A DNA stretch of 64,000 bases. Source: a virus. The position numbers were made by a program, and so were the translations under genes. The stretch lies in the IMG/VR virus record IMGVR_UViG_3300002092_001378, positions 37,757-101,756 of that record; one strand, written 5' to 3'. Shown piece after piece: positions 10,808 to 28,610 of the stretch. The notes under the pieces are model-generated. The model saw nothing but the letters and a program-made list of their open reading frames with translations, made no database searches and had not been told where the DNA came from. Numbering within the stretch: position 1 is the first letter of the stretch; every line of letters begins with the position of its first letter.

Positions 10808-12667
10808 ATGGCATATATTGTTAATAAAACAGATGGAAATATTGCTGCTGTTGTTAATGACGGCACGCTTAGTACAGTTACGAGCATAAAGCTTGTTGGT
10901 ATCGGTTACCAAAATTATGCTGAAACAATTGCTGAAAATCTTGTGCAGATGATGGAAAACTTTGCACACATAATACCCCCAACTGGACCTCTTCCTGGAC
11001 AAATTTGGTTTAACAAAAATACCAGTCATTTGCAAGTTTATGACGGTGTAATGTTTAAGGAAATTAACAATACTGCAATTAGTGACTCTACACCAATACA
11101 CGCCAGAACCGGTGATTTTTGGTTTAATAACACCACAAAACAATTATTTTTCTATAGAAATGGTAACTGGCAAGTAATTGCTCCTGCGTATCCAGCAAGT
11201 ATGGGTGCAACAGACCTAGTAGCTGAAGGGTTAACTGATCTTAGTGGCAACGTACATCCTGCTGTTACTTTATATGTTGATGGTAGTAGAATGGCCATTA
11301 TCAGTAAAGACGATAGTTATATGCCCATTCCTTATATTGAAGGGTTTACAAATGTAAATCCAGGCATAAACTTAATTGAATATCCAGGATATAGATACAG
11401 TGGTATAGTAGACTATGCAGGAGCAGCATATGGTTTACTATCAGACGCCGATGCAACGTATATGCATGCCAACTCCGATGCCAGTACAGTAGGTACATTG
11501 AGTGTTATAAATGATGGTGGGATTGCAATTGGCGCAAATGGTGATGTTGTTATATCATCAATAGTAGCCAGTCCCTATACTTTTGGTTCATCTATAACAT
11601 CAACAACTGATAAATCTTTGGCATTAGTTGGTTATGGCGGTGGCACATTAGTAATGGATAACGCTACTAATTGGATCGCCATTAATAAGATTAATCCCAC
11701 TGCTGACTTAGATGTTGGTGGCTCAATTAATGCTGACGAGACTATTACTTCGCAGGGCGGTTATTATTTTACTGATGGCAGCTTTATAAATTATTCTAAT
11801 GTAAGCGGGTTAAGCACAATAAGATTGGCACCAGGTGGTGAGTTAGTTGCATTAACTGCTGATAGCACAGGCAATATTTTTGTTCAGGGATCTTCCAACT
11901 TTAATGATTCAATTGGAGTAACTGGTAGTGCTGTAGTGACAGGCAATGTTAGTATACAAACTTGGCCAACTGAAAATTATCATGCCACATCTAAGCAATA
12001 TACTGAATCTTTAACAGTATCAAATATGTTACCATATGGTAGTATTATCATGTGGTATGGTACAGTGGCAGATGTACCAGATGGATGGGCAGTATGCAAT
12101 GGATCAAATGGAACACCAGACTTAACTGATAAGTTTGTTATGGGTGCCGGAAACCAAGCTGAATTAGGAACTATTGGTGGACAAAGCTTTGCAACAATAA
12201 CAACAAATTTAAGCGGAGCACATACACATACTGGATCAACTGCATCTGCCGGTAGTCATGATCACTCAGGATTAACAGGCGCACATGCGTTGACACCGGG
12301 AGAACTTGCAAGCCATCAACATACGTTTAACGACGTCTATGCTCTTCAGGATGATGCTAATCCACCATTATATGACAGAAATGGTAATAGAGTCTTTAGG
12401 TACAGTAGTTGGGGTGATGATGGCGACAATGATTCTGGTAACCCTGCATACTTTGAAAGTATTACAGATAGTGCTGGTTCAAGTGATCCACATAATCATC
12501 CAATAAGTTCTGATGGTATTCATTCACATGCATTGGCAATAGATCAAACAGCCGCGCATTTACATACAATTGATAATTTTGACAATAGACCTAGCTTTAT
12601 GGCATTATACTATATTATGAAAGTGGCAAATGCACTAGTAGAACCTTTACAACCACCGGGTTATTAA
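10808..12667 (+). CDS. Tail fibre paralog 2 with tail-collar domain and His-rich tip
   Basis: Shared N-terminal module, collar motif GSIIMWYG..VPDGWAVCNGSNGTPDL, several HxH motifs and terminal NRPSFMALYYIMK. Confidence 0.85.
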   Translation: MAYIVNKTDGNIAAVVNDGTLSTVTSIKLVGIGYQNYAETIAENLVQMMENFAHIIPPTGPLPGQIWFNKNTSHLQVYDGVMFKEINNTAISDSTPIHARTGDFWFNNTTKQLFFYRNGNWQVIAPAYPASMGATDLVAEGLTDLSGNVHPAVTLYVDGSRMAIISKDDSYMPIPYIEGFTNVNPGINLIEYPGYRYSGIVDYAGAAYGLLSDADATYMHANSDASTVGTLSVINDGGIAIGANGDVVISSIVASPYTFGSSITSTTDKSLALVGYGGGTLVMDNATNWIAINKINPTADLDVGGSINADETITSQGGYYFTDGSFINYSNVSGLSTIRLAPGGELVALTADSTGNIFVQGSSNFNDSIGVTGSAVVTGNVSIQTWPTENYHATSKQYTESLTVSNMLPYGSIIMWYGTVADVPDGWAVCNGSNGTPDLTDKFVMGAGNQAELGTIGGQSFATITTNLSGAHTHTGSTASAGSHDHSGLTGAHALTPGELASHQHTFNDVYALQDDANPPLYDRNGNRVFRYSSWGDDGDNDSGNPAYFESITDSAGSSDPHNHPISSDGIHSHALAIDQTAAHLHTIDNFDNRPSFMALYYIMKVANALVEPLQPPGY

Positions 12668-12700: not shown

Positions 12701-14293
12701 ATGTCATATAGTATTACTACGTCCAATAACGCAACTTCCTATCTGGTACCAGATGGTCGTTTAAATTCCGACACTTCCTTGGATTTTATTGGTAAGGGAA
12801 CAACTGCATATGGTACATCACTTAACTCAAATTTTTTACATCTATTAGAAAGTTTTGCGGCACCAACTCCTCCAGCGCGATCAATTGCTGGGCAAATATG
12901 GTTTGATACTTCAACTGGATACCTTAAAGTCAGCAATGGGCTTGGATTTAATTATGTAACGGGCCCAATTGATTTTATTGATCACAGTACAATTGGTAAT
13001 ATTTTACTACAGTCAAGCAGTATTACTGGCACACTCACTAACGCTAATGTAAACATTACACCCAATGGTACAGGAAGCACTGTAATTAAGAACATTGCAT
13101 CTAATAATTTTACTGTTGGTCGTGTTCCTTATATTGCTGCAAATGGTGCATTAGTTACAAATGCAATGAGTTATAATGTAGTAACTGATACATTAGCTGC
13201 CGCATATCTAACTGCTGGTAGTGGTATATCAGGGCTATTAACTACTGCTGCTCAGACTAATATTACAAGTCTCGGAACTTTAAATACACTTGCGGTTAAC
13301 AGTGCAAGTGCAATTTCACTTACTTCTGCAAATACAAATGTTGTTGGGAACGCCACAGTTAGTGCAAATCTAGGAGTCAGTGGCACTGGTAATTTTGCTG
13401 GTACGGTTAATGCAGCGACAGTATTAGCAACTTCAATTGGTAATTCAACTACTGTAATGACTGCTGCTACATTTACTGGCACACATAATGGAACACACAA
13501 CGGTGCATTAAACGGGGCACATAATGGAACTGTTGGTGCAACTACTGCTAACACTGGAAATTTTACCACTATCACTGCTTCGACGATCAGTACGACTGGT
13601 GGATTGTCTGGAGTTGCAACAAACTTCAATACGAATCCAGCAAGTATAGATACAGGTAGAATATTTGCTATCTATAATACAAATTATATGCCGGGAGCAA
13701 GTTACAGCTCTTCTGATTCACGTATATTTGACTTTGGTGTGACTACTGGTAATATCGCTTATCTACGTACAAGTGGAACCAATGGGTTTCAAATTTTATC
13801 AGGTGGAAGTGGCACCAGTTTTAATAACTCAATATTACCTACAACTACTGCCACCTATAATTTAGGTTCATCAGGTGCTACTTGGGCAACTATCTACGGT
13901 CTAGCAACATCTGCAAAGTACGCTGACTTGGCGGAAAATTATGTTGCTGATGATGATTATGAGCCCGGCACTGTTGTTATATTTGGTGGGGATCAGGAAG
14001 TTACTGTTTGCGATAAAGATGCAAGCAATGCTATTGCTGGTGTAATTTCAACTGAACCAGGCTACTTAATGAATGCTGCAATTAATGTACCACATGTTGC
14101 CACAGTGGCATTAGTTGGCCGTGTTCCAACTAAGGTTAAAGGGCCAATTAAAAAGGGACAGATGCTGGTTGGAACTGCTGACGGCATGGCTCGCGCAGAA
14201 GACAATCCCAAGATGGGAACAGTAATTGGCAAGGCGCTTAAAGACTTTAACGGTGACGTTGGGGTTATTGAAGTTGTAGTTGGGCGTCTCTAA
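12701..14293 (+). CDS. Tail fibre paralog 3 with C-terminal intramolecular chaperone-like domain
   Basis: Shared N-terminal module, Thr/Gly/Asn-rich shaft, and C-terminal YADLAENY...PGTVV...GVIST.PGYLMN...ALVGRVP...IGKAL. Confidence 0.8.
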   Translation: MSYSITTSNNATSYLVPDGRLNSDTSLDFIGKGTTAYGTSLNSNFLHLLESFAAPTPPARSIAGQIWFDTSTGYLKVSNGLGFNYVTGPIDFIDHSTIGNILLQSSSITGTLTNANVNITPNGTGSTVIKNIASNNFTVGRVPYIAANGALVTNAMSYNVVTDTLAAAYLTAGSGISGLLTTAAQTNITSLGTLNTLAVNSASAISLTSANTNVVGNATVSANLGVSGTGNFAGTVNAATVLATSIGNSTTVMTAATFTGTHNGTHNGALNGAHNGTVGATTANTGNFTTITASTISTTGGLSGVATNFNTNPASIDTGRIFAIYNTNYMPGASYSSSDSRIFDFGVTTGNIAYLRTSGTNGFQILSGGSGTSFNNSILPTTTATYNLGSSGATWATIYGLATSAKYADLAENYVADDDYEPGTVVIFGGDQEVTVCDKDASNAIAGVISTEPGYLMNAAINVPHVATVALVGRVPTKVKGPIKKGQMLVGTADGMARAEDNPKMGTVIGKALKDFNGDVGVIEVVVGRL

Positions 14294-14946
14294 ACATAGT
14301 CTGCATCAAAAACAATACAGTTTCTAGGTAAATCACTGTGATGTTCAGTTACTGCATGCCATACTTCAGGTTTATGAAGTACTAATTCTCCCTCTGATGG
14401 CTGCAAATACCATTTGTCTTTTTCATCATAGATCGTGTGCAATGTGTCAGGTATACCGTTTTTAATAAACACCAAATTACTAGAATTTTCAGGCACATCT
14501 AGGTAAAAAATTGCCACTATATCAGCTCTAAAATTTTCACTACTTAAATCAGTATATTCTGCCATATAAGAATCTAGCTCAATATGTCTATGACATTTGC
14601 CCTGTGATCCTTTGACCATTCTATTTGCCCAAGCACGTTTATAAGAAACACTAGTGCCCAATTTATTGATTCCAAGTGTGTTTTTTGCTAACAAAATTTG
14701 TTCGCTTACCCATTGAGTTAAAGGTTGAGCGCCAGGCAAATGTATTACTTGCAAGTATGTCTGCCCAACAGTTGTCATGCCTCCGCCCACATGGCTATCT
14801 CCACGCGGTGCTTTTACTCTGAATTTTACTTCAGGTAAATTTAATACACGATTAATACTTTTTGTTAAATCGCTGTTCCTATATAGTGATACATCTGTGC
14901 ATTGTATTCTAACTACAGTGCTGCCAAAAACATTTTCAACTTTCAA
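14290..14946 (-). CDS. Putative Fe(II)/2OG oxygenase (TIGR02466-like)
   Basis: WAN...HRH...IFYL...LV...WHAV...R..IVFD pattern of a double-stranded beta-helix oxygenase. Ends in TAG. Confidence 0.7.
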   Translation of the reverse strand: MKVENVFGSTVVRIQCTDVSLYRNSDLTKSINRVLNLPEVKFRVKAPRGDSHVGGGMTTVGQTYLQVIHLPGAQPLTQWVSEQILLAKNTLGINKLGTSVSYKRAWANRMVKGSQGKCHRHIELDSYMAEYTDLSSENFRADIVAIFYLDVPENSSNLVFIKNGIPDTLHTIYDEKDKWYLQPSEGELVLHKPEVWHAVTEHHSDLPRNCIVFDADYV

Positions 14947-16327
14947 CTTTTTTCCTTATGAAATCTGCATGATCTTGTAAATGACTTGTATCTAGATTTT
15001 TAACCTGTAAAGGCTTTATGATTCCAATTCCTGCCATAACATATTTCCAATCTTTAAAATCCAATGGTCTTAAGTAGTCTGTTACTTTGTTTGTGGGCAT
15101 TATTCTTATCAAATAATCTAAATCTTTTTCAGTTAACTTTTCACCAAATTCAATGACATTTTTTACCAAGTCTGGTATTGTATTTTTGTTTTTAAAATTG
15201 CGCCAAAAAACGGTGTCAGTTCTTTTGGTCATATAATGTAAGTGTACAAAACAGGAGTTTTCTTCGTTAAGCTGCCTAACTGCATTATTGTATTCATCAA
15301 TGGACTGTTGGTGTTTGTGTCTGCCCATGCCATTAATTTTTGCTTGTAGCATCCTTAGGCTCATAATTGAAATGCCAATTGCAGTTGCTTCTAAAGGTTC
15401 AGCAAATCCACTGGAAAGCCCAATGGCAATGCAATTATTGATCCAAGTTTTTTCGTAACAGCCTGCATTAAAATTAAAAATCTTAGGAGGAATTACTTCA
15501 ACTCCAAAATATTCTTCTAATTCTTTTTTAATTTCCTCATCAGTAGCTAGGTTACTGTCAAATACATAACCACACCCAAATCTATCTTGTACAGGAATCT
15601 TCCAAGCCCACCCATGTTTCATTCCAATAGATTCTGTATATGAAGGAATATTTTCATTGTCATGTGGTAAAAAAAATGGCATTGCTCTATTAACAGGTAA
15701 AAAATCTGCATAGGAATGCCAAGTAGCTTTGTAAAAATTACCTATAATTAATTTTTTAAACCCGCTGCAATCAAATACAAAATCTAGTTTAATTTTTTGA
15801 TTATTGGATAACACTAGCTCACTGATGTCATTTTTATCATTCGGTATTATTTCTGTTACTTGTGCATCTATATATTCTATACCACGTTGAATGGCAAACC
15901 CCTTAAGGTAGTCGGCCATTATCATTGCGTTAAAATGAACTGAATCTTCGGTCAATATTCCATTATGTCTAATTCGTTGATTGTTATAATCAAAGAGAAC
16001 TTTATTTTCTTTTGCTGCTGCGATACTGATATCTTCTGTGGAAGAAATAGCTGAATGAAAATAAGAAGTGCCGTCTCCGTTCCAGTTAGTAAACTTAATA
16101 GCATTTTTTATGGTAATTTTACATTTCTTTATTACTTCATTGAAGTCCAACCCCAGATCATTTTCTAAAAATTCACTGAAATTTTTAGTGGTTCCTTCAC
16201 CAGCACCAAGTACTCCTATTTCACTACTTGCGACAACCGTTACATTGCTATATGGGATATTTTTTTGCACATACAATGCCGTAAGCCAACCAGCAGTTCC
16301 ACCACCTACTACAACAAATTTTTTCAT
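14936..16327 (-). CDS. Flavin-dependent halogenase (tryptophan halogenase family)
   Basis: GGGTAG FAD motif, GEGT, Lys in ITIKNAIKF (position of the catalytic Lys), FDCSGF, WAWKIP (WxWxIP) and GFAEPLEAT. Confidence 0.9.
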   Translation of the reverse strand: MKKFVVVGGGTAGWLTALYVQKNIPYSNVTVVASSEIGVLGAGEGTTKNFSEFLENDLGLDFNEVIKKCKITIKNAIKFTNWNGDGTSYFHSAISSTEDISIAAAKENKVLFDYNNQRIRHNGILTEDSVHFNAMIMADYLKGFAIQRGIEYIDAQVTEIIPNDKNDISELVLSNNQKIKLDFVFDCSGFKKLIIGNFYKATWHSYADFLPVNRAMPFFLPHDNENIPSYTESIGMKHGWAWKIPVQDRFGCGYVFDSNLATDEEIKKELEEYFGVEVIPPKIFNFNAGCYEKTWINNCIAIGLSSGFAEPLEATAIGISIMSLRMLQAKINGMGRHKHQQSIDEYNNAVRQLNEENSCFVHLHYMTKRTDTVFWRNFKNKNTIPDLVKNVIEFGEKLTEKDLDYLIRIMPTNKVTDYLRPLDFKDWKYVMAGIGIIKPLQVKNLDTSHLQDHADFIRKKVES

Positions 16328-16902
16328 GACAAATACCTAAATTCTAATACCAAACTTACTCTTAAATCATCGCTAAGGTTTGTTTCAACGCTATGAATAG
16401 CATAAGAAGGAAATAAAATAAGTTTGCCAGGTTCCGGAGTTACTCGATGTGTCATATAACCTGAATTATTCTTCTTATTTGTATCAAATGTTTGTTTAAC
16501 ATATGGATCTTGCCATATGTCAGGAACAGATCCTCTTGCGTCATGTATTAATAGATCTCCGCAATTTTTAGGAGCTTTTAAATAATAAACACCAACTACA
16601 CCGTCTACATATGGATGGTGGTGTGGTGGATCACTTTCCAATGGTCGCCGAACATGTTGACGACCCCTTATTTGTACAGTATTAAAAGTAATACCATAAT
16701 CTCTTGCAACTTGTTCGGCAATATCAATTACTTTATCTTTAAACTCAGTGATACCCTCACCCGGCATATCAAATAGTATATAATCCCCATTGGCCTTATA
16801 GTTTAAGGTATCCATTAATATTTTCTTGTTCATCATTCTAGCATCGTCAAAGTTAACAATCCAGACTGGGGTAGAAAACATTAGATTAGTATTAATATCC
16901 AT
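16324..16902 (-). CDS. Putative Fe(II)/2OG oxygenase (TIGR02466-like)
   Basis: Start moved to ATG 16902 (MDINTNLMFSTPVW). Motifs PHHHP..GVYYLKAPKNCGDL..D.R..P.PGKLILFPSY..HSV..N....RVS. Confidence 0.8.
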   Translation of the reverse strand: MDINTNLMFSTPVWIVNFDDARMMNKKILMDTLNYKANGDYILFDMPGEGITEFKDKVIDIAEQVARDYGITFNTVQIRGRQHVRRPLESDPPHHHPYVDGVVGVYYLKAPKNCGDLLIHDARGSVPDIWQDPYVKQTFDTNKKNNSGYMTHRVTPEPGKLILFPSYAIHSVETNLSDDLRVSLVLEFRYLS

Positions 16903-17473
16903 TTTCAATCCCTTTATTGATAAATCTAAATTCAAATACTACACTAATCCTTGTATCATTGCTAAAATTGGGTTCGACTGAATGTATTAGATAGTTGGGA
17001 AACAATAGTAACATGCCAGGTTTAGGTTCAATCTTAACAGATACCCTCCCGTCCCTCATTATACCATCATTGGTAATATTAGGATCTTTCCACATATTTG
17101 AAACTGAACCTCGGCAGTCTATAAACTGTATGTCCCCGCAATTTTTTGGAGTTTTAAGGTAATATATACCTAGCATATCAGACCCTGGATGATGATGTGG
17201 GGTATCAAACTCGCCAGGTTTCATTGGGTTAAGTCGACTTCGAATATTTAAATTATCGTACACCCAATTATTTTCAACAGCAATTTCTGTAACAGCATCT
17301 ATAATAATTTTTTTAAGTTCGGCAATGCCCTCACTTGGTAAATCAAGAAATTCTTGATTTCCGGTTTTATATTCAGCACTATCTACTATGAGTTTTTTAT
17401 TTAAGAACCGATAATCTTCAACTTGATATATCCACAGTGGAGTAGCAAACAGTTGCTTTACTTGTCTTTGCAC
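16892..17473 (-). CDS. Putative Fe(II)/2OG oxygenase (TIGR02466-like), paralog of the adjacent gene
   Basis: LFATPLW, PHHHP, GIYYLKTPKNCGDI, PGMLLLFPNYLIHSVEPN...RIS. Confidence 0.8.
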   Translation of the reverse strand: MQRQVKQLFATPLWIYQVEDYRFLNKKLIVDSAEYKTGNQEFLDLPSEGIAELKKIIIDAVTEIAVENNWVYDNLNIRSRLNPMKPGEFDTPHHHPGSDMLGIYYLKTPKNCGDIQFIDCRGSVSNMWKDPNITNDGIMRDGRVSVKIEPKPGMLLLFPNYLIHSVEPNFSNDTRISVVFEFRFINKGIENGY

Positions 17474-17474
17474 A

Positions 17475-18134
17475 TTAAAGTCTTTCTAGATCCTGCTTCA
17501 ATTTAGAAACGATGTCATCGTGTAGATCTTCATTGTCATAAATTTCAGATGTCAGTGAATATTCAATAACAATATGATTTGGTTCAATGGCAGAGAACAC
17601 ATTGTAAATTAAATCAGCTGGTACTGTGTCTAGTGTATGACCGGCAACTTTACATGAAATTACAATCTTGTCCTCTCCATATAATTCATAGACAGTAACA
17701 GCCTCAACGCCATCAACGTCGTCAATTAATTGTAACAGTTTTGACAAATTATCAGAGTAATTGGAAATAGGAGCTAATGAACGATTGTTATAAAGCAGAG
17801 AAGAAACTTTTGTTTCAGGATCAATGAAAAAAGTAATGTTTTTAGAATGGTCATTACTTAATGTAGATATCACTGCAAACGCTTCTTCCGCAACATTTGT
17901 TTTTGCCAACTGATCGACTGAGTCAATTAAATTATCAGTAACAACTATATTCAATACTCCACCGTCAAATTCAAAAATAAATTTAATTAAGTTTTTGCCA
18001 GTGATATTATACTTGCTTGCTATTTGCTTTACTGTGATTTCGTCTGGCACGTCGACTGATGCCTTTGTAAAAGCACTATGCCCTGTAAATAAATCAAATA
18101 CCTTTTGTATATTTTTAGTAACTGTTATTGACAT
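17475..18134 (-). CDS. Hypothetical protein within the modification cassette
   Basis: 219-aa ORF tightly packed between the radical SAM and oxygenase genes. No motif recognised. Confidence 0.6.
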   Translation of the reverse strand: MSITVTKNIQKVFDLFTGHSAFTKASVDVPDEITVKQIASKYNITGKNLIKFIFEFDGGVLNIVVTDNLIDSVDQLAKTNVAEEAFAVISTLSNDHSKNITFFIDPETKVSSLLYNNRSLAPISNYSDNLSKLLQLIDDVDGVEAVTVYELYGEDKIVISCKVAGHTLDTVPADLIYNVFSAIEPNHIVIEYSLTSEIYDNEDLHDDIVSKLKQDLERL

Positions 18135-18137
18135 TTG

Positions 18138-19604
18138 TTATCCTTTAAGGCTTTTTGCAAGCCATCCTTCAACTTTTGCCTGACCGTAAATTTCTATGTC
18201 GTCAATCATTCCAGTTTTTTCAATTACTACCTTTTTAGTAGTCCACTTGGGAGTATTCATATCCGTATGTTCATAAACAGTTCCCCAAATGTCTTGCCTA
18301 CCCAATGGCAATCCGTCGCCTTCAATGGTAACAGGAATAAACCCATTGGTCATTTTTACAAAACTTAGAGCAAATAAAGGAACATTATCTGAGTATGCAC
18401 TGTCGCAAGTTGCATCCCAATTTGGACCATCTAGATACATGCAAGATCCCTTGCATAGCTGTAGTACAGGACAATCTTTACACCCTGCTCTATTTTTCCA
18501 ATGTGTGACAGATTTTAATGCTACATTAGCATAATCTTCTAAATTACCACCTAGATGCGGCTCACCATTCTTACTTAATTCCTTAACACTTACATTTTGA
18601 CATGTGACAATGTTACCCAATAGGTCCACAGCAATTGTATGCTCATCATCCATGCCGCATTTTTGTCCAAGATTTGCAGCATCAAAATGATTCAAAACAC
18701 TTTTAGTAAAATTATCAATTTTTTCGTATTGCCCATAAAATCCCAATGTATCTTCGTATCCATACACATCATTAAAACTCTGACGTCTATATTCAAAATG
18801 TTCATTCAATGTAGCAAAACTACTATTAAGGCCATCATCGTCGTAAGCATCGACGAAAGACCCTTCGCCTATAATTACATCAGGATCGCCGGTAAATTCA
18901 ACAAACCAATCATAAACTGCACGTCTGCTGGTATTACTTTTGTTCATCATAGTATTAAAGCTAATCCTGCCATGTGGTTTCATAACTTTATAGAATTCCA
19001 TAAGAATTTTCTTTTTTTCAGGATCAATGAATGGGTCCGGACCTCTTGTTGGTTGCCCAGGGCCATCATGGCTAATGCCAACATTAAAGCCCATATAATA
19101 CAACCACGAGCAAATTTCTCTAGTTAGTAAACTGCCATTAGTAATAACACTGAAAACAGGTTTTGTTTTCCAACTATCAAATTTCTCATCAAGTGCTTCT
19201 GCCAATGGTTTTAATGTCTTCCAATAAACGAAAGGTTCTCCGCCCCAAAATTCAATCTTTAACCCTTTATCTTCACGAAATTCTAACACATCCATTTTAG
19301 CAAGAAATGCATCTATATCCTTCTTACTGGTCTCATCAGGACGTTCAACAAACTTTTGACTACAATAGCTGCATGAATAGTTGCAACTTAACCCCAATTG
19401 AATTTTAAGTGTATTAATTTTATTTGATTTTAGTAGAGGATCTTCTTTGGAAAATGCTCGGCTGGGAGTTAATCCAGAAAAATTTGCAAGATTAGGATAT
19501 TCAAAAACAAATCCTGATTCATCTGTCAGAATATTTTTTTGATTGTCGTAAAAAAATGTTTTACGACCCTCGCCAGCCTTTTCTGCTTCTACTTTAAATA
19601 ACAT
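18138..19604 (-). CDS. Radical SAM/SPASM peptide-maturase-like enzyme
   Basis: CNYSCSYC (CX3CX2C), FWGGEP, ITNGSLL, ISHDGP. C-terminal SPASM Cys set CGMD...CQ...CKDCPVLQLCKGSC...C. SD AAGGA upstream. Confidence 0.92.
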   Translation of the reverse strand: MLFKVEAEKAGEGRKTFFYDNQKNILTDESGFVFEYPNLANFSGLTPSRAFSKEDPLLKSNKINTLKIQLGLSCNYSCSYCSQKFVERPDETSKKDIDAFLAKMDVLEFREDKGLKIEFWGGEPFVYWKTLKPLAEALDEKFDSWKTKPVFSVITNGSLLTREICSWLYYMGFNVGISHDGPGQPTRGPDPFIDPEKKKILMEFYKVMKPHGRISFNTMMNKSNTSRRAVYDWFVEFTGDPDVIIGEGSFVDAYDDDGLNSSFATLNEHFEYRRQSFNDVYGYEDTLGFYGQYEKIDNFTKSVLNHFDAANLGQKCGMDDEHTIAVDLLGNIVTCQNVSVKELSKNGEPHLGGNLEDYANVALKSVTHWKNRAGCKDCPVLQLCKGSCMYLDGPNWDATCDSAYSDNVPLFALSFVKMTNGFIPVTIEGDGLPLGRQDIWGTVYEHTDMNTPKWTTKKVVIEKTGMIDDIEIYGQAKVEGWLAKSLKG

Positions 19605-19628: not shown

Positions 19629-20009
19629 TTACCATAAACAAGCACATAAACAAAGGCAATTGCAGTTATAAGAGCGTGTAGTGATAGTACAATTATATGT
19701 ACATGCACAATTGCAATTGGTTTGTAGGTATGACTGTGCGTCGCAGTTTGCACAATCTACAGTGCCATTAATTACACAATTTACACAGTTAATATTGCCA
19801 CTTCCCAGTGATTCAACACAATTCCCGTTATCGCAATTTCCATCAGCATTGCGCTGATAATATGCTTTACTATACTTGCCTGACAACGGATTGGTTGGTA
19901 CTTTCTCAACAGATTTAATCCAGCTCATACTCACACTAAGAGTAGTTGCACGTCCAAGTTCAGTATTAACGTCGCTAAATTTAATTATTCCGGAAGCTGG
20001 TAATGTCAT
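19629..20009 (-). CDS. Cys-rich small protein, putative radical SAM substrate (126 aa)
   Basis: ATG at 20009 (MTLPASG...). 15 Cys in the C-terminal ~70 aa, 10 of them as Asn-Cys, ending CNCLCLCACLW. First gene of the minus-strand cassette. Confidence 0.8.
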   Translation of the reverse strand: MTLPASGIIKFSDVNTELGRATTLSVSMSWIKSVEKVPTNPLSGKYSKAYYQRNADGNCDNGNCVESLGSGNINCVNCVINGTVDCANCDAQSYLQTNCNCACTYNCTITTRSYNCNCLCLCACLW

Positions 20010-20030
20010 GACTATTTCCAAATGTTACGG

Positions 20031-20036
20031 TATTTA
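20031..20036 (-). promoter_or_regulatory. TAAATA late-promoter-like motif for the modification cassette
   Basis: TATTTA on + reads TAAATA on -, 21 nt upstream of ATG 20009. Confidence 0.55.
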
Positions 20037-20057
20037 TCATCACATAACACTGTCATT

Positions 20058-20124: not shown

Positions 20125-22224
20125 ATGTCATATACAATTAATGTCACTAATAGTAATCCAATTACAATATTGTCAGGTACTTCAGATACCAGCACTGCAC
20201 TTACGCTTGTGGGAAAGAATATTTCTAACTACGGAGAAATATTTGCTCAAAATTTTGTTGACTTAATGCAAAACTTCGCAAGCCCCAGTGCTCCAAATGG
20301 GATATTAGAGGGACAATTATGGTATGACAGTGGCACATATTCCTTAAAATTATATAAGAACGGCAGCTATAAAGTTATATCAACTATTTCATCCAGTACA
20401 ACCGCCCCAACTGCCCCTTACATTGGTGATTTGTGGTGGGATACGGCAAATAGTCTTCTTAAGATATGGAATACTACTACTTGGGTTTCTATTGGCCCCA
20501 ACGTATTGAATACTTCCAGTTCAGCAGTTGCGGACGCTATACTTGACACCAATAATGTGCTGAGACCAATCTTAAAAATGGTAGTTGATTCGGCTGTTGT
20601 TGCAGTATTCAGTTCTGCTACCTTTGCACCTCAGACAACATATAACGGGCTTACATTAATTTACGGTGGCATGACACTTGTTGGTACCGGAACAACTTTC
20701 GGAAACATTGTTAGCTCATTTGCGTCAATTACTACTCTTAACGCAACTACAACTAATGCTTCGCAAGTAAATGCTGTTACTGTAGTTGCCACAACAATTG
20801 GAAATGCTAATTCAGCAATACGAGGAACAAGTGCCACCGTTGCTGGCGCAATTACTGCTGCAACTGTCAATGCACTTAATATTGGAAACGCCGGAGCTAC
20901 AATAACAGGTACACATAATGGTCCACATAATGGACCATTTAATGGAAATATTGGATCAGTAACTCCTAACACTGCTGTCTTTACAACTGTGACTGCTGAT
21001 ACTGTTACTGCAATAACTGTGACAGGTAATACTATAGGAAATACTGGTGCTACATTAACTGGTACGCTCTCAACTGCTACTCAACCAAATATTACAAGTG
21101 TGGGAACATTAACTGGTGCAACAGTAAATGGAACTTTAACTGCTACAACTGCCAATGCAACCACGGTAAATGCAACTACCACTAATAGTAGCACGGTAAA
21201 TGCATCGACTGTTAATGCTGTAACACTAGCGGCAACAAATATTGGTAATGCTACCTCGGTTGTAACTGGTGCAAGTGCTGCAATAGCTGGCACAGTGACC
21301 GCTGCAACAGTTAACGCCCTGGCAATCGGAAACAACGGTGCGATAATAACCGGAACACATAACGGTCCACTTAATGGACCATTTAATGGAACTATAGGCG
21401 CTACAGTTGCTAATACAGCAGCATTCACTACAATGGCAACATCGGGTACAACCAGTTTAGCAACATTGAGTGGTAATGTTGGGATTGGTACTGCGTCAGC
21501 TGCTGCAAAATTACATGTTGCGGGAACACTTAATTTAACGAGCACACTGTCAATATCTGGTGCTCCAGGTGGGAGTGGGCAATTCTTAACATCCGGTGGC
21601 GCAGGCGCCGCCCCTACTTGGACTAGTATGCGTAGCGGATTTAGCGACATGGTAGTTTATGGTGTGGCAGGCACTTATGCTTGGACTGTGCCGGCAAATG
21701 TTACTAAAATAAAAGCAACTGTTGTTGGTGGCGGTGGTGGTGGCGGCGGCAGTGGCCAAAATTATGATAGTGGCGCTGGTGGCGGCGGTGGTGGCACATC
21801 CACTAAAATTATTAGCGGTTTAACTCCTGGAACTTCTATTACTGTCACTGTTGGTGGTGGTGGCGGAGGTAGTAATGGTTGGGGAGGAACTGGGCAAACT
21901 GGCGGAACTTCGTCTGTTGGTTATTGCAGCGCGACAGGTGGTGAAGGTGGTGCTCCAACTTCTGGCTCTGGTGGCGTTGGCGGCATAGGTAATAGTGGAG
22001 ATATTAATATTAGAGGTCAGGCAGGTGGTTCCGGCATTGCGTGTGGTACATACGGCGGTAGTCCTGGGGGCAATGGCGGATCTTCTACGTTGGGTGGCGG
22101 CGGCCAAGGCGGATCAGGTACTGGTGGCATTGGTGGATCTTATGGCGGAGGCGGAGGCGGCGCCGGTGGTATATACACCTCAGGTGGCGCAGGCGCCACG
22201 GGTGTTGTAATAATAGAATACTAA
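20125..22224 (+). CDS. Tail fibre paralog 4 with Gly-rich C-terminal adhesin-like domain
   Basis: Shared N-terminal module, duplicated ~70-aa shaft segment, GNVGIGT motif, and C-terminal WTVPANVTKI..VVGGGGGG...GVVIIEY Gly-rich domain. Confidence 0.8.
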   Translation: MSYTINVTNSNPITILSGTSDTSTALTLVGKNISNYGEIFAQNFVDLMQNFASPSAPNGILEGQLWYDSGTYSLKLYKNGSYKVISTISSSTTAPTAPYIGDLWWDTANSLLKIWNTTTWVSIGPNVLNTSSSAVADAILDTNNVLRPILKMVVDSAVVAVFSSATFAPQTTYNGLTLIYGGMTLVGTGTTFGNIVSSFASITTLNATTTNASQVNAVTVVATTIGNANSAIRGTSATVAGAITAATVNALNIGNAGATITGTHNGPHNGPFNGNIGSVTPNTAVFTTVTADTVTAITVTGNTIGNTGATLTGTLSTATQPNITSVGTLTGATVNGTLTATTANATTVNATTTNSSTVNASTVNAVTLAATNIGNATSVVTGASAAIAGTVTAATVNALAIGNNGAIITGTHNGPLNGPFNGTIGATVANTAAFTTMATSGTTSLATLSGNVGIGTASAAAKLHVAGTLNLTSTLSISGAPGGSGQFLTSGGAGAAPTWTSMRSGFSDMVVYGVAGTYAWTVPANVTKIKATVVGGGGGGGGSGQNYDSGAGGGGGGTSTKIISGLTPGTSITVTVGGGGGGSNGWGGTGQTGGTSSVGYCSATGGEGGAPTSGSGGVGGIGNSGDINIRGQAGGSGIACGTYGGSPGGNGGSSTLGGGGQGGSGTGGIGGSYGGGGGGAGGIYTSGGAGATGVVIIEY

Positions 22225-22275: not shown

Positions 22276-23193
22276 ATGGCATACTCTTCCGGCGGGTTAA
22301 TTGAAGCAGTTGATTATAATAACAGAGTAAATGCTCTCAATTCAATCTGGGGCGCAGGTTCCGGTGCAAACGGCTATGGGCAAACTTCAACTACACTTAG
22401 TACAACTAGTACCAGTGCAGCGGTAACGGCAACTCAATGGGCCAGTTTAATTGCTAGACTGGACGCGATAACCGTTCATCAAACTGGCGTTACGTCTAGT
22501 ATATCACAGCCAACTGCTGGTACAACAATTGCATGGTTGAGTACAATTGACACAAAAATTGCAGCAACTTATACAAATAGACTTTCAGTTTCATTTAGAG
22601 GCGCACTTAATTTGACCGCAATTGGAACTATTTCTAACAGTACTGGTTGGTATACAAGTTCCACTAAAGAAGGGCAAATGTCATTTAGTAGTACTGACAC
22701 TGTGCGATATTTCTTTAATGCAGGCGGTCTAATATCAATGAATATAACACAGGCCGCAGGTGCAAATATTAAAAGTACAGACTGGTCAAATTTTTATACT
22801 AATCAAATTGGTGTAATAAGTTTGGGATATAATTTTTGTAGCAGAAGTGGATCAGGTGGTGATAACTTAACTTTAAATACCAGTATCGGATGGACTAATT
22901 TAACATCAACATATCAAACATTGTTTAGTGTTGGTTCCACAACCGCCACTGGTTATTATGGCAACAACTATATGACTATTGAAGCAAAAATTGGTTCTAC
23001 AAACAATGTGCTACAATTTAGATTTATCTCATATGATGTGGCACTTGATTCAGCTCCCTATAGAAACTTGGCACAACAAATAATATCAGGCGCAAATACT
23101 GTTAATTTTGGTTGGACTCCGCCCGAAACAACGTATCTAACCAATGTCTGGGGAACACCTGCATTTGGTATTGTAACTAATAGCCAAGGCTAA
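22276..23193 (+). CDS. Probable virion structural protein
   Basis: 305 aa, Ser/Thr/Gly-rich. MAYSSGGLIEAVDYN, GYGQ and RYFFNAGG motifs. Late motif upstream. Confidence 0.65.
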   Translation: MAYSSGGLIEAVDYNNRVNALNSIWGAGSGANGYGQTSTTLSTTSTSAAVTATQWASLIARLDAITVHQTGVTSSISQPTAGTTIAWLSTIDTKIAATYTNRLSVSFRGALNLTAIGTISNSTGWYTSSTKEGQMSFSSTDTVRYFFNAGGLISMNITQAAGANIKSTDWSNFYTNQIGVISLGYNFCSRSGSGGDNLTLNTSIGWTNLTSTYQTLFSVGSTTATGYYGNNYMTIEAKIGSTNNVLQFRFISYDVALDSAPYRNLAQQIISGANTVNFGWTPPETTYLTNVWGTPAFGIVTNSQG

Positions 23194-25433: not shown

Positions 25434-26355
25434 AATTGTTGATGTTAGCGAATTGGATTGCATTTATCTCAGCTATGATGAGCCGCAGGCCGATGAGTTC
25501 TTCATCAAGATACGCAGTCAAATACCCTGGATCAAACGTGTACATGGTGTAAAAGGCAGTGATGCTGCTCATAAAGCTGCTGCCGCCGCAAGTGATACTG
25601 AACGCTTTATTCTTATTGACGGCGACAATATGCCCAACTGGAATTTCTTCCATGAGCAACTGCGTATTGATCATACAAATGATGAATGTGTATTCCGCTG
25701 GCGTGCTAAGAACGTCATTAATGGATTGACATATGGCAACGGTGGCATCAGCTGCTGGACTAAAACATTTGTCAACAATATGCGTAGTCATGAAGCAACC
25801 AATGGCACGGATGCAACACAAGTTGAATTCTGCTTTGATAACAAATACTGGGCAATGCACGACGTCTACAGCACAACATATCCTAATCAAAGCCGATATC
25901 ATGCTTGGCGAGCAGGGTTTAGAGAAGGTGTTAAAATGTGTTTGGATCAAGGACGCAGATTAACGCCAGCGGAGTTTGAATCTGCTTGGCAGGGCAACAG
26001 GCATAACCTTGAAATTTGGTGTACTGTTGGCAACGATGTTGACTATGGCGACTGGGCTATAATGGGTGCCAGATATGGCGCATGGCGTGTTATGTTTGAT
26101 TCTGCTTGGGATCACACTGAAGTAAGAGATTTTGATAAGCTAAAAGAGATTTATGAGAACTTTAACGACACTTATATCGAAGATTATACCGCAGAATTAA
26201 CTAATAGGCTTGGACTTAATATTGTTCATTTGTCATCTGAGCAAAGTGCATGGCATAAAGCACATCAAACAGAATATAAAAACGTAGACATCATGCTTCC
26301 TGAACGAGACTACAACAGAGTAATAAATGACACAGCAAGGACCCTCAGGCGATAA
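25426..26355 (+). CDS. Glycosyltransferase-like protein (GT2-like)
   Basis: Start moved to ATG 25426. DCIYLSYDEP, RVHGVKGSDAAH, FILIDGDN (DxD), YGNGG, AWRAGFREGVKM. Confidence 0.7.
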   Translation: MTEIVDVSELDCIYLSYDEPQADEFFIKIRSQIPWIKRVHGVKGSDAAHKAAAAASDTERFILIDGDNMPNWNFFHEQLRIDHTNDECVFRWRAKNVINGLTYGNGGISCWTKTFVNNMRSHEATNGTDATQVEFCFDNKYWAMHDVYSTTYPNQSRYHAWRAGFREGVKMCLDQGRRLTPAEFESAWQGNRHNLEIWCTVGNDVDYGDWAIMGARYGAWRVMFDSAWDHTEVRDFDKLKEIYENFNDTYIEDYTAELTNRLGLNIVHLSSEQSAWHKAHQTEYKNVDIMLPERDYNRVINDTARTLRR

Positions 26356-27757
26356 GACTACAACAAATGATGATGGCACACTTAATAGTGCGTTCATGTC
26401 ATCAGCAGAACAAATGCGAGAAAAGCTTGGGCCAGCATTATGTCTTGCCAAGTGGCAACAGACCAGCCTACACTTAACTACTGGTCATACAAATAGCTGT
26501 TACCATCCACCACTACACAAGATCGAGGAGACAGAACTTGAGAATAACCCCAGTGCGCTCCATAACACCCCTTACAAGAAGACCCAAAGACACAGGATGT
26601 TACGGGGAGAGAAGCCAGAAGAATGTTCATATTGCTGGCGTGCTGAAGCCACTGGAAACTTATCAGATAGACACTACAGGTCAGGGGAGCCCTGGGCGGC
26701 TGAGAGATTTGATGAGATTTTGGTTCAAGATCCCCTAACATGGAATGTGAATCCCGCTTATGTTGAAGTCAATTTTAGCAATATTTGTAATCTTAGATGT
26801 AGTTATTGCAGCCCTCAATTTAGTAGCACATGGGCACAAGAAGTCGCCAAGTTGGGCGCCTATCCTACCCATAATAGACATAACGACCCAAGTCATTTTG
26901 TGGGGGAACGTCATGTTATTGCTAATCGTTCCCATAATCCTTATGTTGACGCCTTTTGGAAGTGGTGGCCTGAACTATATCCCCAACTAAAACACTTCCG
27001 TATGACTGGTGGTGAGCCAACCATGGATAAGAATACATATCGTGTATTTGACTATGTGTTGGCAAATCCAAAGAAAGATCTACATCTCAACACCACAAGT
27101 AACTTCAGTCAACAGCCGGTTGTGTTTGACAAGTATCTGGATTATGTTAAGAGACTATGTGAAGGTGAGCACATTGAGCATTTCATGCAGTTTGTTAGTC
27201 TCGACACATGGGGCAAGCAAGCTGAGTATATACGTGATGGTATGGACTTTGATCTTGTTATTGCGAACGTAGAAAGATTTTTAACTGAAGTACCTTATCG
27301 CAATAGCCTCACGTTCATTATTACTGTGAGCAATCTTGCCATTCCTAATATTCACAGGCTATTGCAGTATATATTAGATCTTAGATCAAAGCACAGCACA
27401 ACATATCAGCGTGTTTGGTTTGATACTCCTGTATTGCGTGAACCATTATGGCAAACGCCAATTGGCATGCCGGAAGCTTATCAATGGAAGCTGAAGAAAA
27501 CTGTTGAGTGGATGAACAATAATCTAGAAACAACTGAAAATCGTTTTCACGGATTTAAAGATTATGAGATACAGCGTTTACAGCGTATAATAGATCAAAT
27601 GGGTTCAAAGAAAAATCAATTTGCCAATGAGACAAAAGCAGACTTTTACAAGTTCTTCGATGAACATGACAAGCGCAGAAACACAAACTTTCTTAAGACT
27701 TTTCCTGAGATGAGTGAGTGGTATGACGAATGTAAGTATTGGGCTGCCAATGTTTGA
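26327..27757 (+). CDS. Radical SAM protein with N-terminal twitch-like domain (1 of 7)
   Basis: N-terminal C..W...CYH...CSYCW..E, CNLRCSYC, TGGEP. Confidence 0.9.
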   Translation: MTQQGPSGDKTTTNDDGTLNSAFMSSAEQMREKLGPALCLAKWQQTSLHLTTGHTNSCYHPPLHKIEETELENNPSALHNTPYKKTQRHRMLRGEKPEECSYCWRAEATGNLSDRHYRSGEPWAAERFDEILVQDPLTWNVNPAYVEVNFSNICNLRCSYCSPQFSSTWAQEVAKLGAYPTHNRHNDPSHFVGERHVIANRSHNPYVDAFWKWWPELYPQLKHFRMTGGEPTMDKNTYRVFDYVLANPKKDLHLNTTSNFSQQPVVFDKYLDYVKRLCEGEHIEHFMQFVSLDTWGKQAEYIRDGMDFDLVIANVERFLTEVPYRNSLTFIITVSNLAIPNIHRLLQYILDLRSKHSTTYQRVWFDTPVLREPLWQTPIGMPEAYQWKLKKTVEWMNNNLETTENRFHGFKDYEIQRLQRIIDQMGSKKNQFANETKADFYKFFDEHDKRRNTNFLKTFPEMSEWYDECKYWAANV

Positions 27758-28610
27758 TCTTAATAATGTTAAAACACTGCATCTGGAAATAACCAGTAAC
27801 TGTAATGCTGCTTGCCCACAGTGTGATCGCTATCGTCTTGACAAATTAAATCCCAACCTGATAGTAAATGATCTTAGCCTAGCTGATATACAAAGCAAAC
27901 TTACAACTGACTTTGTTAAACAATTGAATAAAATGTTTATGTGTGGCAATCACGGTGATCCTGCTGCTGGCAAAGACACACTGGAAGTATTCAAATGGTT
28001 TCGTCAAATTAATCCCAAGATCACACTGGGAATGAATACCAATGGTGGACTTAAAACTAAACAATGGTGGAATCAACTTGCACAGCTAATCAATCGTGAA
28101 CGTGATTATGTTGTGTTTAGCATTGATGGATTAGAAGATACAAATCACATCTATCGTCGCAATGTTGAATGGCAACGTCTAATGGAAAATGTGCAGTCAT
28201 TTATAAATGCAGGTGGTAGAGCTCAGTGGGATATGTTGATATTCCGACACAATGAACATCAAGTACCAGAAGCAAGACAACTTGCCACTGATTTGGGGTT
28301 TGTCCGTTTTAATTGCAAGGTGTCTCGACGTTTTGATATGACACCAGTAGATTACCTTGAACCACCGGTTAATTACAAAGCAGCATATCACGAATCCTCG
28401 GACAATATTGAATGTATCGCACTTAAAGACAAAAGCATTTATATGGATAGCAGAGGCGATCTAATACCTTGTTGTTGGTTGGGTATTGATGTTGTTAATA
28501 ATAAGTCTCAATATACAGTGCAAGGATTTGTCCCCACTAAAGACAATGCAACGTGTCTTAAGACATGCGGCACCGCAGACAAAAGCAAGTATGAGAAACA
28601 ATGGATATGA
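27750..28610 (+). CDS. Radical SAM protein with C-terminal twitch-like domain (2 of 7)
   Basis: Start moved to ATG 27750. CNAACPQC, CGNHGDP, TNGG, FSIDG, C-terminal C...PCCW...C...C. Confidence 0.9.
   Translation: MFDLNNVKTLHLEITSNCNAACPQCDRYRLDKLNPNLIVNDLSLADIQSKLTTDFVKQLNKMFMCGNHGDPAAGKDTLEVFKWFRQINPKITLGMNTNGGLKTKQWWNQLAQLINRERDYVVFSIDGLEDTNHIYRRNVEWQRLMENVQSFINAGGRAQWDMLIFRHNEHQVPEARQLATDLGFVRFNCKVSRRFDMTPVDYLEPPVNYKAAYHESSDNIECIALKDKSIYMDSRGDLIPCCWLGIDVVNNKSQYTVQGFVPTKDNATCLKTCGTADKSKYEKQWI

Follow-up and report, generated by a model that had tools for sequence, protein, structure and literature searches.

Why would a phage carry, among its tail fiber genes, a gene for a small protein with a dense Asn-Cys repeat, followed by genes for enzymes of the kinds that mature peptide natural products, and does the gene's product leave the cell as a modified peptide or stay with the virion as a modified protein? 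The gene in question lies in a 64,000 nucleotide stretch of viral DNA (the whole stretch that was analyzed is called the window below), and the IMG/VR record from which the window comes, a 101.8-kb fragment judged about 29% complete, belongs to a virus that has a T4-type gp23 capsid gene; the virus is a large T4-like phage.

The Cys-rich gene and its product

The Cys-rich gene occupies positions 19629-20009 on the minus strand (ATG at 20009, TAA stop at 19629-19631) and encodes 126 amino acids. The program-made list of open reading frames starts it at an upstream TTG at 20021, and we take the ATG at 20009 to be the true start because the homologs begin with MT(L/T)P. These homologs form 97 protein clusters that are 39-85% identical to the window protein and have its whole length in common, and relatives are encoded on 136 viral contig stretches in IMG/VR. 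This conservation argues that the short plus-strand open reading frames lying over the gene are spurious; judged by it, the Cys-rich frame is a real, conserved gene. No family in Pfam, NCBIfam or PHROGs matches the protein, megablast of the whole cassette (below) against the phage collection gave no match, and tblastn of the protein gave three weak N-terminal matches only, in a search whose low-complexity filter may mask the core.

The protein is built in two parts. Residues 1-58 contain no Cys, while 15 Cys are spread across residues 59-124; ten of these follow an Asn and one an Asp, and the protein ends with CNCLCLCACLW. An earlier note on this DNA had described just this anatomy (about 58 Cys-free residues, then 15 Cys, ten in NC and one in DC, with the same terminus) and had called the protein bipartite; the translated frame agrees on both counts. 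The Cys-rich part, which we call the Asn-Cys ladder or core, spans 19632..19841 on the minus strand (residues 57-126, with all 15 Cys and a Trp at the end, before the stop at 19629-19631). None of 20,000 shuffles of the 70-residue core matched its ten NC dipeptides, and across the 97 homologs 68% of the Cys are preceded by Asn and 10% by Asp. The residues that are invariant in the family sit almost wholly in the core: G57, N58, C59, N63, C78, C86, N88, C89, D90 and Q96, and also N100, C101, Y105, N106, C107, C116, C118 and C120. The core thus has six NxxC motifs plus the invariant C59-x3-N63 and C86-x3-D90. AF2 fails on this part of the protein (pLDDT < 50).

Six genes follow the Cys-rich gene tightly on the same strand, and in order they encode a radical SAM/SPASM enzyme, a 219 amino acid partner protein, two oxygenases, a halogenase and a third oxygenase-like protein.

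A radical SAM enzyme tied to the ladder

The first of these genes (18138..19604, minus strand) encodes the presumed maturase, a 488 amino acid protein with a Pfam Radical_SAM match and a SPASM domain (TIGR04085). Its CX3CX2C, CxnGx4C and Cx2Cx5Cx3C motifs are at residues 74, 316 and 375, and CX3CX2C and the full SPASM Cys set (the seven-Cys motif) are kept in all 75 full-length homologs.

Is the enzyme coupled to the Cys-rich protein, and if so to which part of it? When 80 viral loci that had been fetched with the family alignment were searched by tblastn with the window's radical SAM protein, a homolog was found to adjoin the Cys-rich gene, on either side, in 80 of 80; the same was true of 5 of 5 contigs from bacterial genomes, whose ladder loci include Polynucleobacter, a Paraburkholderia prophage and a Hyphomicrobiaceae MAG. 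Gene order varies among the ladder loci, but the adjacency of these two genes is kept. As a control, 80 viral loci were fetched for the same N-terminal module (70 leader open reading frames were parsed, none with a Cys core), and in these loci, where the module carries non-Cys heads, the enzyme was found within 6 kb in 0 of 80. The presence of the enzyme in 85 of 85 core loci and 0 of 80 control loci therefore ties it to the Asn-Cys core and not to the N-terminal module, and the pairing with a radical SAM enzyme that the earlier note implied proves to be very strong.

The cassette gave no Pfam match to an RRE (PqqD-like) domain, and just 73 residues precede the cluster motif of the radical SAM protein. 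The radical SAM enzymes of phage DNA hypermodification were considered and ruled out as an identity for this protein, as those are SPL-like rather than SPASM enzymes and have no tie to Cys-rich genes. Other radical SAM genes were seen as well. A second radical SAM protein of ~505 amino acids (CxxxCxxC within ELARGCIFKCKFC) is encoded within the cassette in twelve halogenase-type loci (for example L005:8439-9971, plus strand; L015:4861-6369; L063:8440-9966), and the window cassette is without it. Outside the cassette, the window has two radical SAM-like open reading frames (26327-27757 and 27714-28610, CxxxCxxC) at 26327-28610 on the plus strand, downstream of glycosyltransferase-like genes.

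The N-terminal part is a docking module

The Cys-free part of the protein that precedes the ladder (residues 1-56; 19842..20009, minus strand) follows the pattern MTLPASG.I..SD.N.ELG...YYQRN.D. The earlier note drew attention to a likeness of this N-terminus to small fiber-associated phage proteins and supposed that it may dock on a fiber, on the maturase or on both. When 1.84 billion representatives were searched with a profile made from residues 1-56 only (E <= 0.001), it matched 679 clusters, always within residues 1-60 of the matching protein. About half of these clusters are without the ladder and bear other heads, which are Gly-rich, fibrinogen-like, BNR or beta-propeller-like, or beta-rich; among ten non-Cys heads that were tested, three matched Gly_rich_2 and one, that of the docking-module relative L105, matched the GP38 adhesin family PF05268 at 29.5 bits (cut-off 25). 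Two phage genes whose products have this N-terminus, Vibrio phage BUCT194 gp065 and Pseudomonas phage Cygsa01_00011, each overlap the stop codon of an S74-terminated tail fiber gene.

The leader profile and these fiber-overlapping genes of cultured phages show that this likeness to fiber proteins is real. The AF2 model of residues 1-55 is a small helical domain (pLDDT 73-83), and Foldseek with the Cys-rich protein gave no match in the PDB and weak N-terminal matches in a viral library, some of them annotated as gp38 (E 0.5-1.4). As far as its distribution among protein sequences tells, the N-terminal module serves small fiber-tip proteins in general as a docking domain and is not a RiPP-specific leader. 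Nor is the module specific to the maturase, since the enzyme is missing from all 80 loci with non-Cys heads.

C-terminal forms of the ladder and its fiber context

Proteins of the ladder family have four architectures: stand-alone, with a Peptidase_S74 domain after the ladder, with a Hint domain after the ladder, and with a ~170 amino acid C-terminal domain. The window protein is of the stand-alone form, without S74 or Hint. In the second form S74 begins directly after the ladder (e.g., CACAW followed by SDD.LK), and in the third Hint does so (CF.AG..V.MADGS). Both S74 and Hint are self-cleaving, and S74 domains are intramolecular chaperones typical of trimeric fibers and spikes. Because they sit exactly after the ladder, cleavage would leave a C-terminus of the stand-alone type. 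When longer proteins were searched with the core only, just S74, Hint and D-type forms of 223-342 amino acids were found, and no long fibers; an apparent 402 amino acid fusion in L090 was rejected as an out-of-frame read-through artefact of high-GC DNA. The ~170 amino acid domain (SKIIC[TA]KLYE.G.M...W.ADQ.YG) follows the ladder at L001:5581-6108 (plus strand) and in 27 further loci, and in these 28 loci the last part of the domain is hydrophobic and membrane-like. Pfam and PHROGs gave no match for it and the ESM Atlas shows viral hypothetical proteins only; it may serve as a third type of module for processing or anchoring the C-terminus.

In the window the cassette is antisense to the plus-strand tail fiber genes that flank it and is not directly downstream of one. 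On one side are two tail fiber genes (10808-12667 and 12701-14293, both plus strand), the first of which has a Collar match and six HxH motifs, and on the other are a fiber gene with a Gly_rich_2 head (20125-22224, plus strand) and a fiber-module gene of 305 amino acids (22276-23193, plus strand). The HxH motifs of the 10808-12667 fiber (HTH, HDH, HQH, HNH, HSH and HLH) bring to mind the needle of T4 gp37, which binds metal.

A late-promoter-like motif, GATAAATA, lies at 20031..20038 on the minus strand, 21 nt upstream of the Cys-rich ATG, with its ATAAATA at 20037; this is the single minus-strand copy of ATAAATA in the 64 kb window. On the plus strand the same heptamer lies 17-25 nt upstream of the fiber-gene ATGs at 10808, 12701, 20125 and 22276. 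The T4 late promoter is TATAAATA, which ATAAATA resembles, and ATAAATA is probably the core of the phage's late promoter. As the motif is common to the fiber genes and the Cys-rich gene, the cassette looks co-regulated with the fibers. The positions of ATAAATA before fiber-module genes are 9191, 10785, 12672, 20100 and 22252 (plus strand), and extra copies at 47098 and 50913 are also ahead of ATGs.

In relatives the gene's setting is of more than one kind. In the fiber-type ladder loci PHROGs identifies the gene upstream as a "long tail fiber distal subunit", and its stop and the next start overlap. Two cultured phages, Achromobacter phage JWF and Ralstonia phage RSP15, have a 44%-identical radical SAM enzyme in the tail fiber module. 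The JWF tail fiber gp028 ends with NCNCDCNCNCS and then Hint, and the radical SAM gene is two genes later (L082, 3832-7353); in RSP15 the radical SAM gene comes after a side tail fiber that ends with NCQCGN (L081, 3431-7341). The ends of these two fibers indicate that bona fide fibers can bear the ladder in short versions. In many T4-like relatives, on the other hand, the cassette adjoins an exonuclease and gp59/gp32, not a fiber gene.

Could the protein then be a true RiPP precursor with a 56 amino acid leader, whose modified core a host or unlinked protease would free, so that it leaves the lysing cell as a diffusible peptide (toxin, signal or metal chelator)? Besides its place away from fiber genes in those T4-like relatives, the cassette does resemble a RiPP cluster (Cys-rich substrate, radical SAM/SPASM enzyme, oxygenases, halogenase), and halogenases of the SrpI type act on the C-terminal Trp of leader-bearing precursors (PMC12615548). 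We nevertheless judge such a release unlikely: Pfam detected no RRE, and neither among the seven genes of the cassette nor among the conserved neighbors of relatives did a leader protease or exporter turn up, which leaves the earlier note's word "precursor" without support in the RiPP sense of a cleaved leader and a released peptide; the supposed leader is shared by the 679 clusters of an adhesin-like set and goes without the enzyme in 80 of 80 control loci; S74 chaperones, typical of trimeric fibers, are fused after the ladder; the ladder is within a bona fide tail fiber in JWF; and the late-type promoter motif is common to fiber genes.

If the protein acts on fibers, need it remain on them? 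It might instead be a fiber-assembly factor that helps folding or binds metal and is absent from the virion, as T4 gp38 is a chaperone, with the radical SAM modification tuning that role. The position of the gene in relatives is that of gp38/Tfa-type genes, and a small gene after a fiber gene can encode an assembly chaperone that is not retained in the virion. Such a transient helper is hard to square, however, with a C-terminus that would be heavily modified, self-cleaving (S74/Hint) and halogenated, and the docking-module relatives bear heads of the receptor-binding type (GP38 adhesin, Gly_rich_2), and so we regard it as quite unlikely.

Partner protein, oxygenases and halogenase

The 219 amino acid partner (17475..18134, minus strand) is a tandem of a ~100 amino acid alpha/beta domain that belongs to no family and was traced by iterative HMM searches: it follows the radical SAM gene in halogenase-type loci and is replaced by two separate ~100 amino acid genes in fiber-type loci. 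Its AF2 model (pLDDT 81.5) has a weak likeness, Z 5-6 (maximum 6.2), to type III secretion chaperones and YbjN, and Foldseek against the PDB was uninformative. Since the chaperone likeness is weak, a substrate-holding role is only a suggestion, and the modeled fold, possibly that of a substrate chaperone, differs from the PqqD-like fold of an RRE. Two small conserved genes of D-type loci (c4 and c5) were tried as relatives of the partner and are unrelated to it by hhalign. Fiber-type loci also have, after the partner genes, a 373 amino acid gene (L012:13213-14334, plus strand) with weak PAPS-reductase/QueC-like (ATP pyrophosphatase) similarity.

Two genes for 2OG-Fe(II) oxygenases of family PF13759 come next on the minus strand, at 16892..17473 (Pfam E 2.4e-20; also TIGR02466) and 16324..16935 (Pfam E 3.7e-14), and a third oxygenase-like gene of this kind lies at the end of the cassette (14290..14946, minus strand; PF13759 E 2.1e-9). 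PF13759 genes are present in 45 of the 80 viral loci, the third oxygenase-like gene is found together with the halogenase in 19 loci, and the 28 loci with the ~170 amino acid C-terminal domain have a gene of the Asp/Asn beta-hydroxylase family PF05118 (E 5.6e-9). The recurring oxygenases and the PF05118 gene plausibly fit a hydroxylation of the Asn/Asp-rich core. The earlier note had offered the Asn/Asp beta-carbons as crosslink acceptors or hydroxylation sites, and the three 2OG oxygenases of the window and the PF05118 gene of its relatives make hydroxylation plausible. A search for core residues specific to oxygenase-bearing loci found none, and the core is equally conserved across the three context classes. 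D-type cassettes also have a conserved 180 amino acid gene (L001:6493-7023, plus strand) with HxD...H (PPHTDTG ... SQPHSV) that is cupin/2OG oxygenase-like; with PF05118 and PF13759 it makes up to three oxygenases in each such cassette.

The halogenase gene (14936..16327, minus strand) encodes a 463 amino acid flavin-dependent halogenase (PF04820, E 3.2e-91) whose GGGTAGW (GxGxxG), catalytic-position Lys, GWAWKIP (WxWxIP) and EPLE align with the solved Trp halogenases 5hy5 and 6nsd. The solved halogenases of free Trp are 497-554 amino acids long, and the shortness of the phage protein is compatible with a peptide-bound substrate. Is there a candidate for that substrate? The ladder ends in W (or in W before an S74 cleavage site) in 18 of 18 halogenase-bearing loci, the window included, and in just 1 of 53 halogenase-free loci, where the contig is cut before the halogenase position. 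In a tree of the radical SAM proteins (57 distinct rows) the loci with a halogenase fall into two clades, and about two changes account for the halogenase label, so this perfect association with Trp rests on few independent events.

The proposed chemistry of the ladder

What would the radical SAM enzyme do to the ladder? Its best NCBIfam matches are the PapB, geopeptide and QhpD maturases, followed by CcpM, SCIFF and TIGR04463, and it is above the curated cut-off of none of PapB, QhpD, CcpM, SCIFF or TIGR04463: PapB, the best, gives 80.2 bits against a cut-off of 340, QhpD 69 against 453 and TIGR04463 39.8 against 525. The closest solved chains are 8vpo and CteB (5wgg), and the anSME model TIGR03942 aligns over nearly the full length (E 1.1e-9). 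With every one of these family scores far short of its cut-off, the enzyme may do something other than what the named families do.

We propose thioethers because of these best family matches and the precedents of NxxcB, QhpD and CrpC. NxxcB joins Cys sulfur to the Asn C-beta as a thioether in NxxC motifs (PMC9389541), CrpC of Methanococcus voltae puts ranthionine links on the 29-kDa Cys-rich protein CrpA (PMC13692751), and QhpD cross-links the gamma subunit of quinohemoprotein amine dehydrogenase (QHNDH), in which the flavoenzyme QhpG then modifies Trp (PMC7876137). The enzyme might act on the ladder by other means, such as Cys-to-formylglycine conversion, C-C or C-O links to Tyr or Trp, or epimerization. 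The low family scores and the long anSME alignment would allow this, and two aromatic residues, Y105 and the terminal W, are conserved; we hold it to be very unlikely, as the top matches (PapB, QhpD, CcpM, SCIFF) and the solved chain CteB are formers of Cys thioethers and most of the invariant residues are Cys, Asn or Asp, which are of the kinds that NxxcB, PapB and QhpD use as donors and acceptors (PMC9389541). That the ladder is an unmodified metallothionein-like or disulfide-bonded domain beside an unrelated radical SAM gene, as its alternating CxC strings (which resemble metal-binding or disulfide-rich beta-solenoid proteins) and the HxH metal-type motifs of the phage's own fiber might suggest, is extremely improbable, for the strict coupling of enzyme and core (85 of 85 loci, against 0 of 80 without the core, with adjacency kept despite varying gene order) leaves such a protein next to no room.

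A proposed modified fiber-tip protein

The reading that we prefer, to which we assign a probability of roughly 0.55, is that the Cys-rich gene and its cassette would make a thioether-stapled, hydroxylated and Trp-halogenated fiber-tip protein rather than a secreted RiPP. We infer from the genes the type of cross-link, the targets of hydroxylation, the halogenation and the presence in the virion. The product of this late, two-module gene would stay a protein, and its residues 1-56, a module used by hundreds of phages, would attach it as a small tip or adhesin protein to the tail fiber. In the reducing cytoplasm, where disulfides cannot form, the radical SAM/SPASM enzyme, dedicated to the ladder, would staple Cys sulfurs to Asn/Asp carbons as thioethers, and the tandem 219 amino acid partner may keep the ladder extended. 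The three 2OG oxygenases would then hydroxylate side chains, most plausibly those of Asn/Asp, and the flavin halogenase would then halogenate the exposed C-terminal Trp126. The finished knot, independent of redox state, would be mounted on the tail fiber as a robust distal tip or receptor-binding head.

At somewhat below even odds we would go further, and suggest that the result is an enzymatically built receptor-binding fiber tip (stapled, hydroxylated and Trp-halogenated) that is swappable with polyglycine heads of the GP38 type, and the first such maturation of a virion protein; a literature search found no paper in which a radical SAM enzyme matures a phage fiber or virion protein. If this is true, phages turn RiPP-style radical chemistry on their own host-recognition hardware and not on natural products; both this RiPP-type radical maturation and the halogenation would be the first of their kind for a virion structural protein. 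That receptor-binding proteins are modified by enzymes would add a new layer to phage biology, and the cross-links would be a cytoplasm-compatible replacement for disulfides in extracellular stability. Such cassettes could also supply compact, hyper-cross-linked scaffolds for binding, as well as new radical SAM, oxygenase and peptidyl-halogenase activities whose protein substrate is defined. Hundreds of clusters from freshwater, soil and host-associated viromes make this a large family, and the cultured phages JWF and RSP15 are usable experimental models.

Comparison with known systems

How does the window cassette compare with systems that have been described? In the ranthipeptide systems NxxcB/NxxcA and PapB/PapA (freyrasin), as in the window, a radical SAM/SPASM enzyme adjoins a Cys-rich substrate; in NxxcB/PapB systems Asn or Asp accepts the Cys sulfur in a C-beta thioether (PMC9389541), and the window core has its six NxxC motifs. 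In contrast to the ranthipeptides, the window's substrate is a 126 amino acid phage protein with a fiber-docking domain, the PapB score is below the cut-off, and no RRE, protease or exporter was found. With the radical SAM/SPASM thioether RiPPs more generally, the window protein shares a Cys-free N-terminal part followed by a C-terminal Cys-rich core. The CrpC/CrpA pair is like the window in that the substrate of the SPASM radical SAM enzyme is a Cys-rich protein and not a peptide; CrpA has a region for recognition at its N-terminus and a Cys repeat at its C-terminus, and a helper, CrpB, raises the extent of modification (PMC13692751). CrpA differs in being archaeal, 29 kDa and built of 17-residue repeats, with no link to a virion, an oxygenase or a halogenase.

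QhpC, QhpD and QhpG likewise combine a small Cys-rich protein, a radical SAM/SPASM enzyme and a flavoenzyme of the Trp-modifying type, and their product in QHNDH is a subunit of a larger assembly (PMC7876137). The flavoenzyme of the window differs from QhpG in being of the halogenase family with its motifs intact (the QhpG model gives 18 bits against 240), and the cassette has no QhpA/B dehydrogenase subunit genes. The SrpI/SrpE Trp brominase and MibH are precedents for a flavin-dependent halogenase acting on a peptide-bound C-terminal Trp, SrpI brominating that of a leader-bearing precursor (PMC12615548); unlike theirs, the substrate of the window halogenase would be a cross-linked phage protein.

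The adhesins of the gp38 type (PF05268; T2/S16) are also small proteins encoded after the distal fiber gene, in which a modular head sits on an attachment region; PF05268 does not match the window protein, whose head is an enzyme-tied Asn-Cys ladder instead of polyglycine. In comparison with S74/Hint fiber C-termini, the window copy ends at the very Trp that S74 cleavage would expose, the cut in its S74 relatives coming before SDD.LK. What is known, then, is the maturation of a Cys-rich protein by a radical SAM/SPASM enzyme, and what is new is its biological setting.
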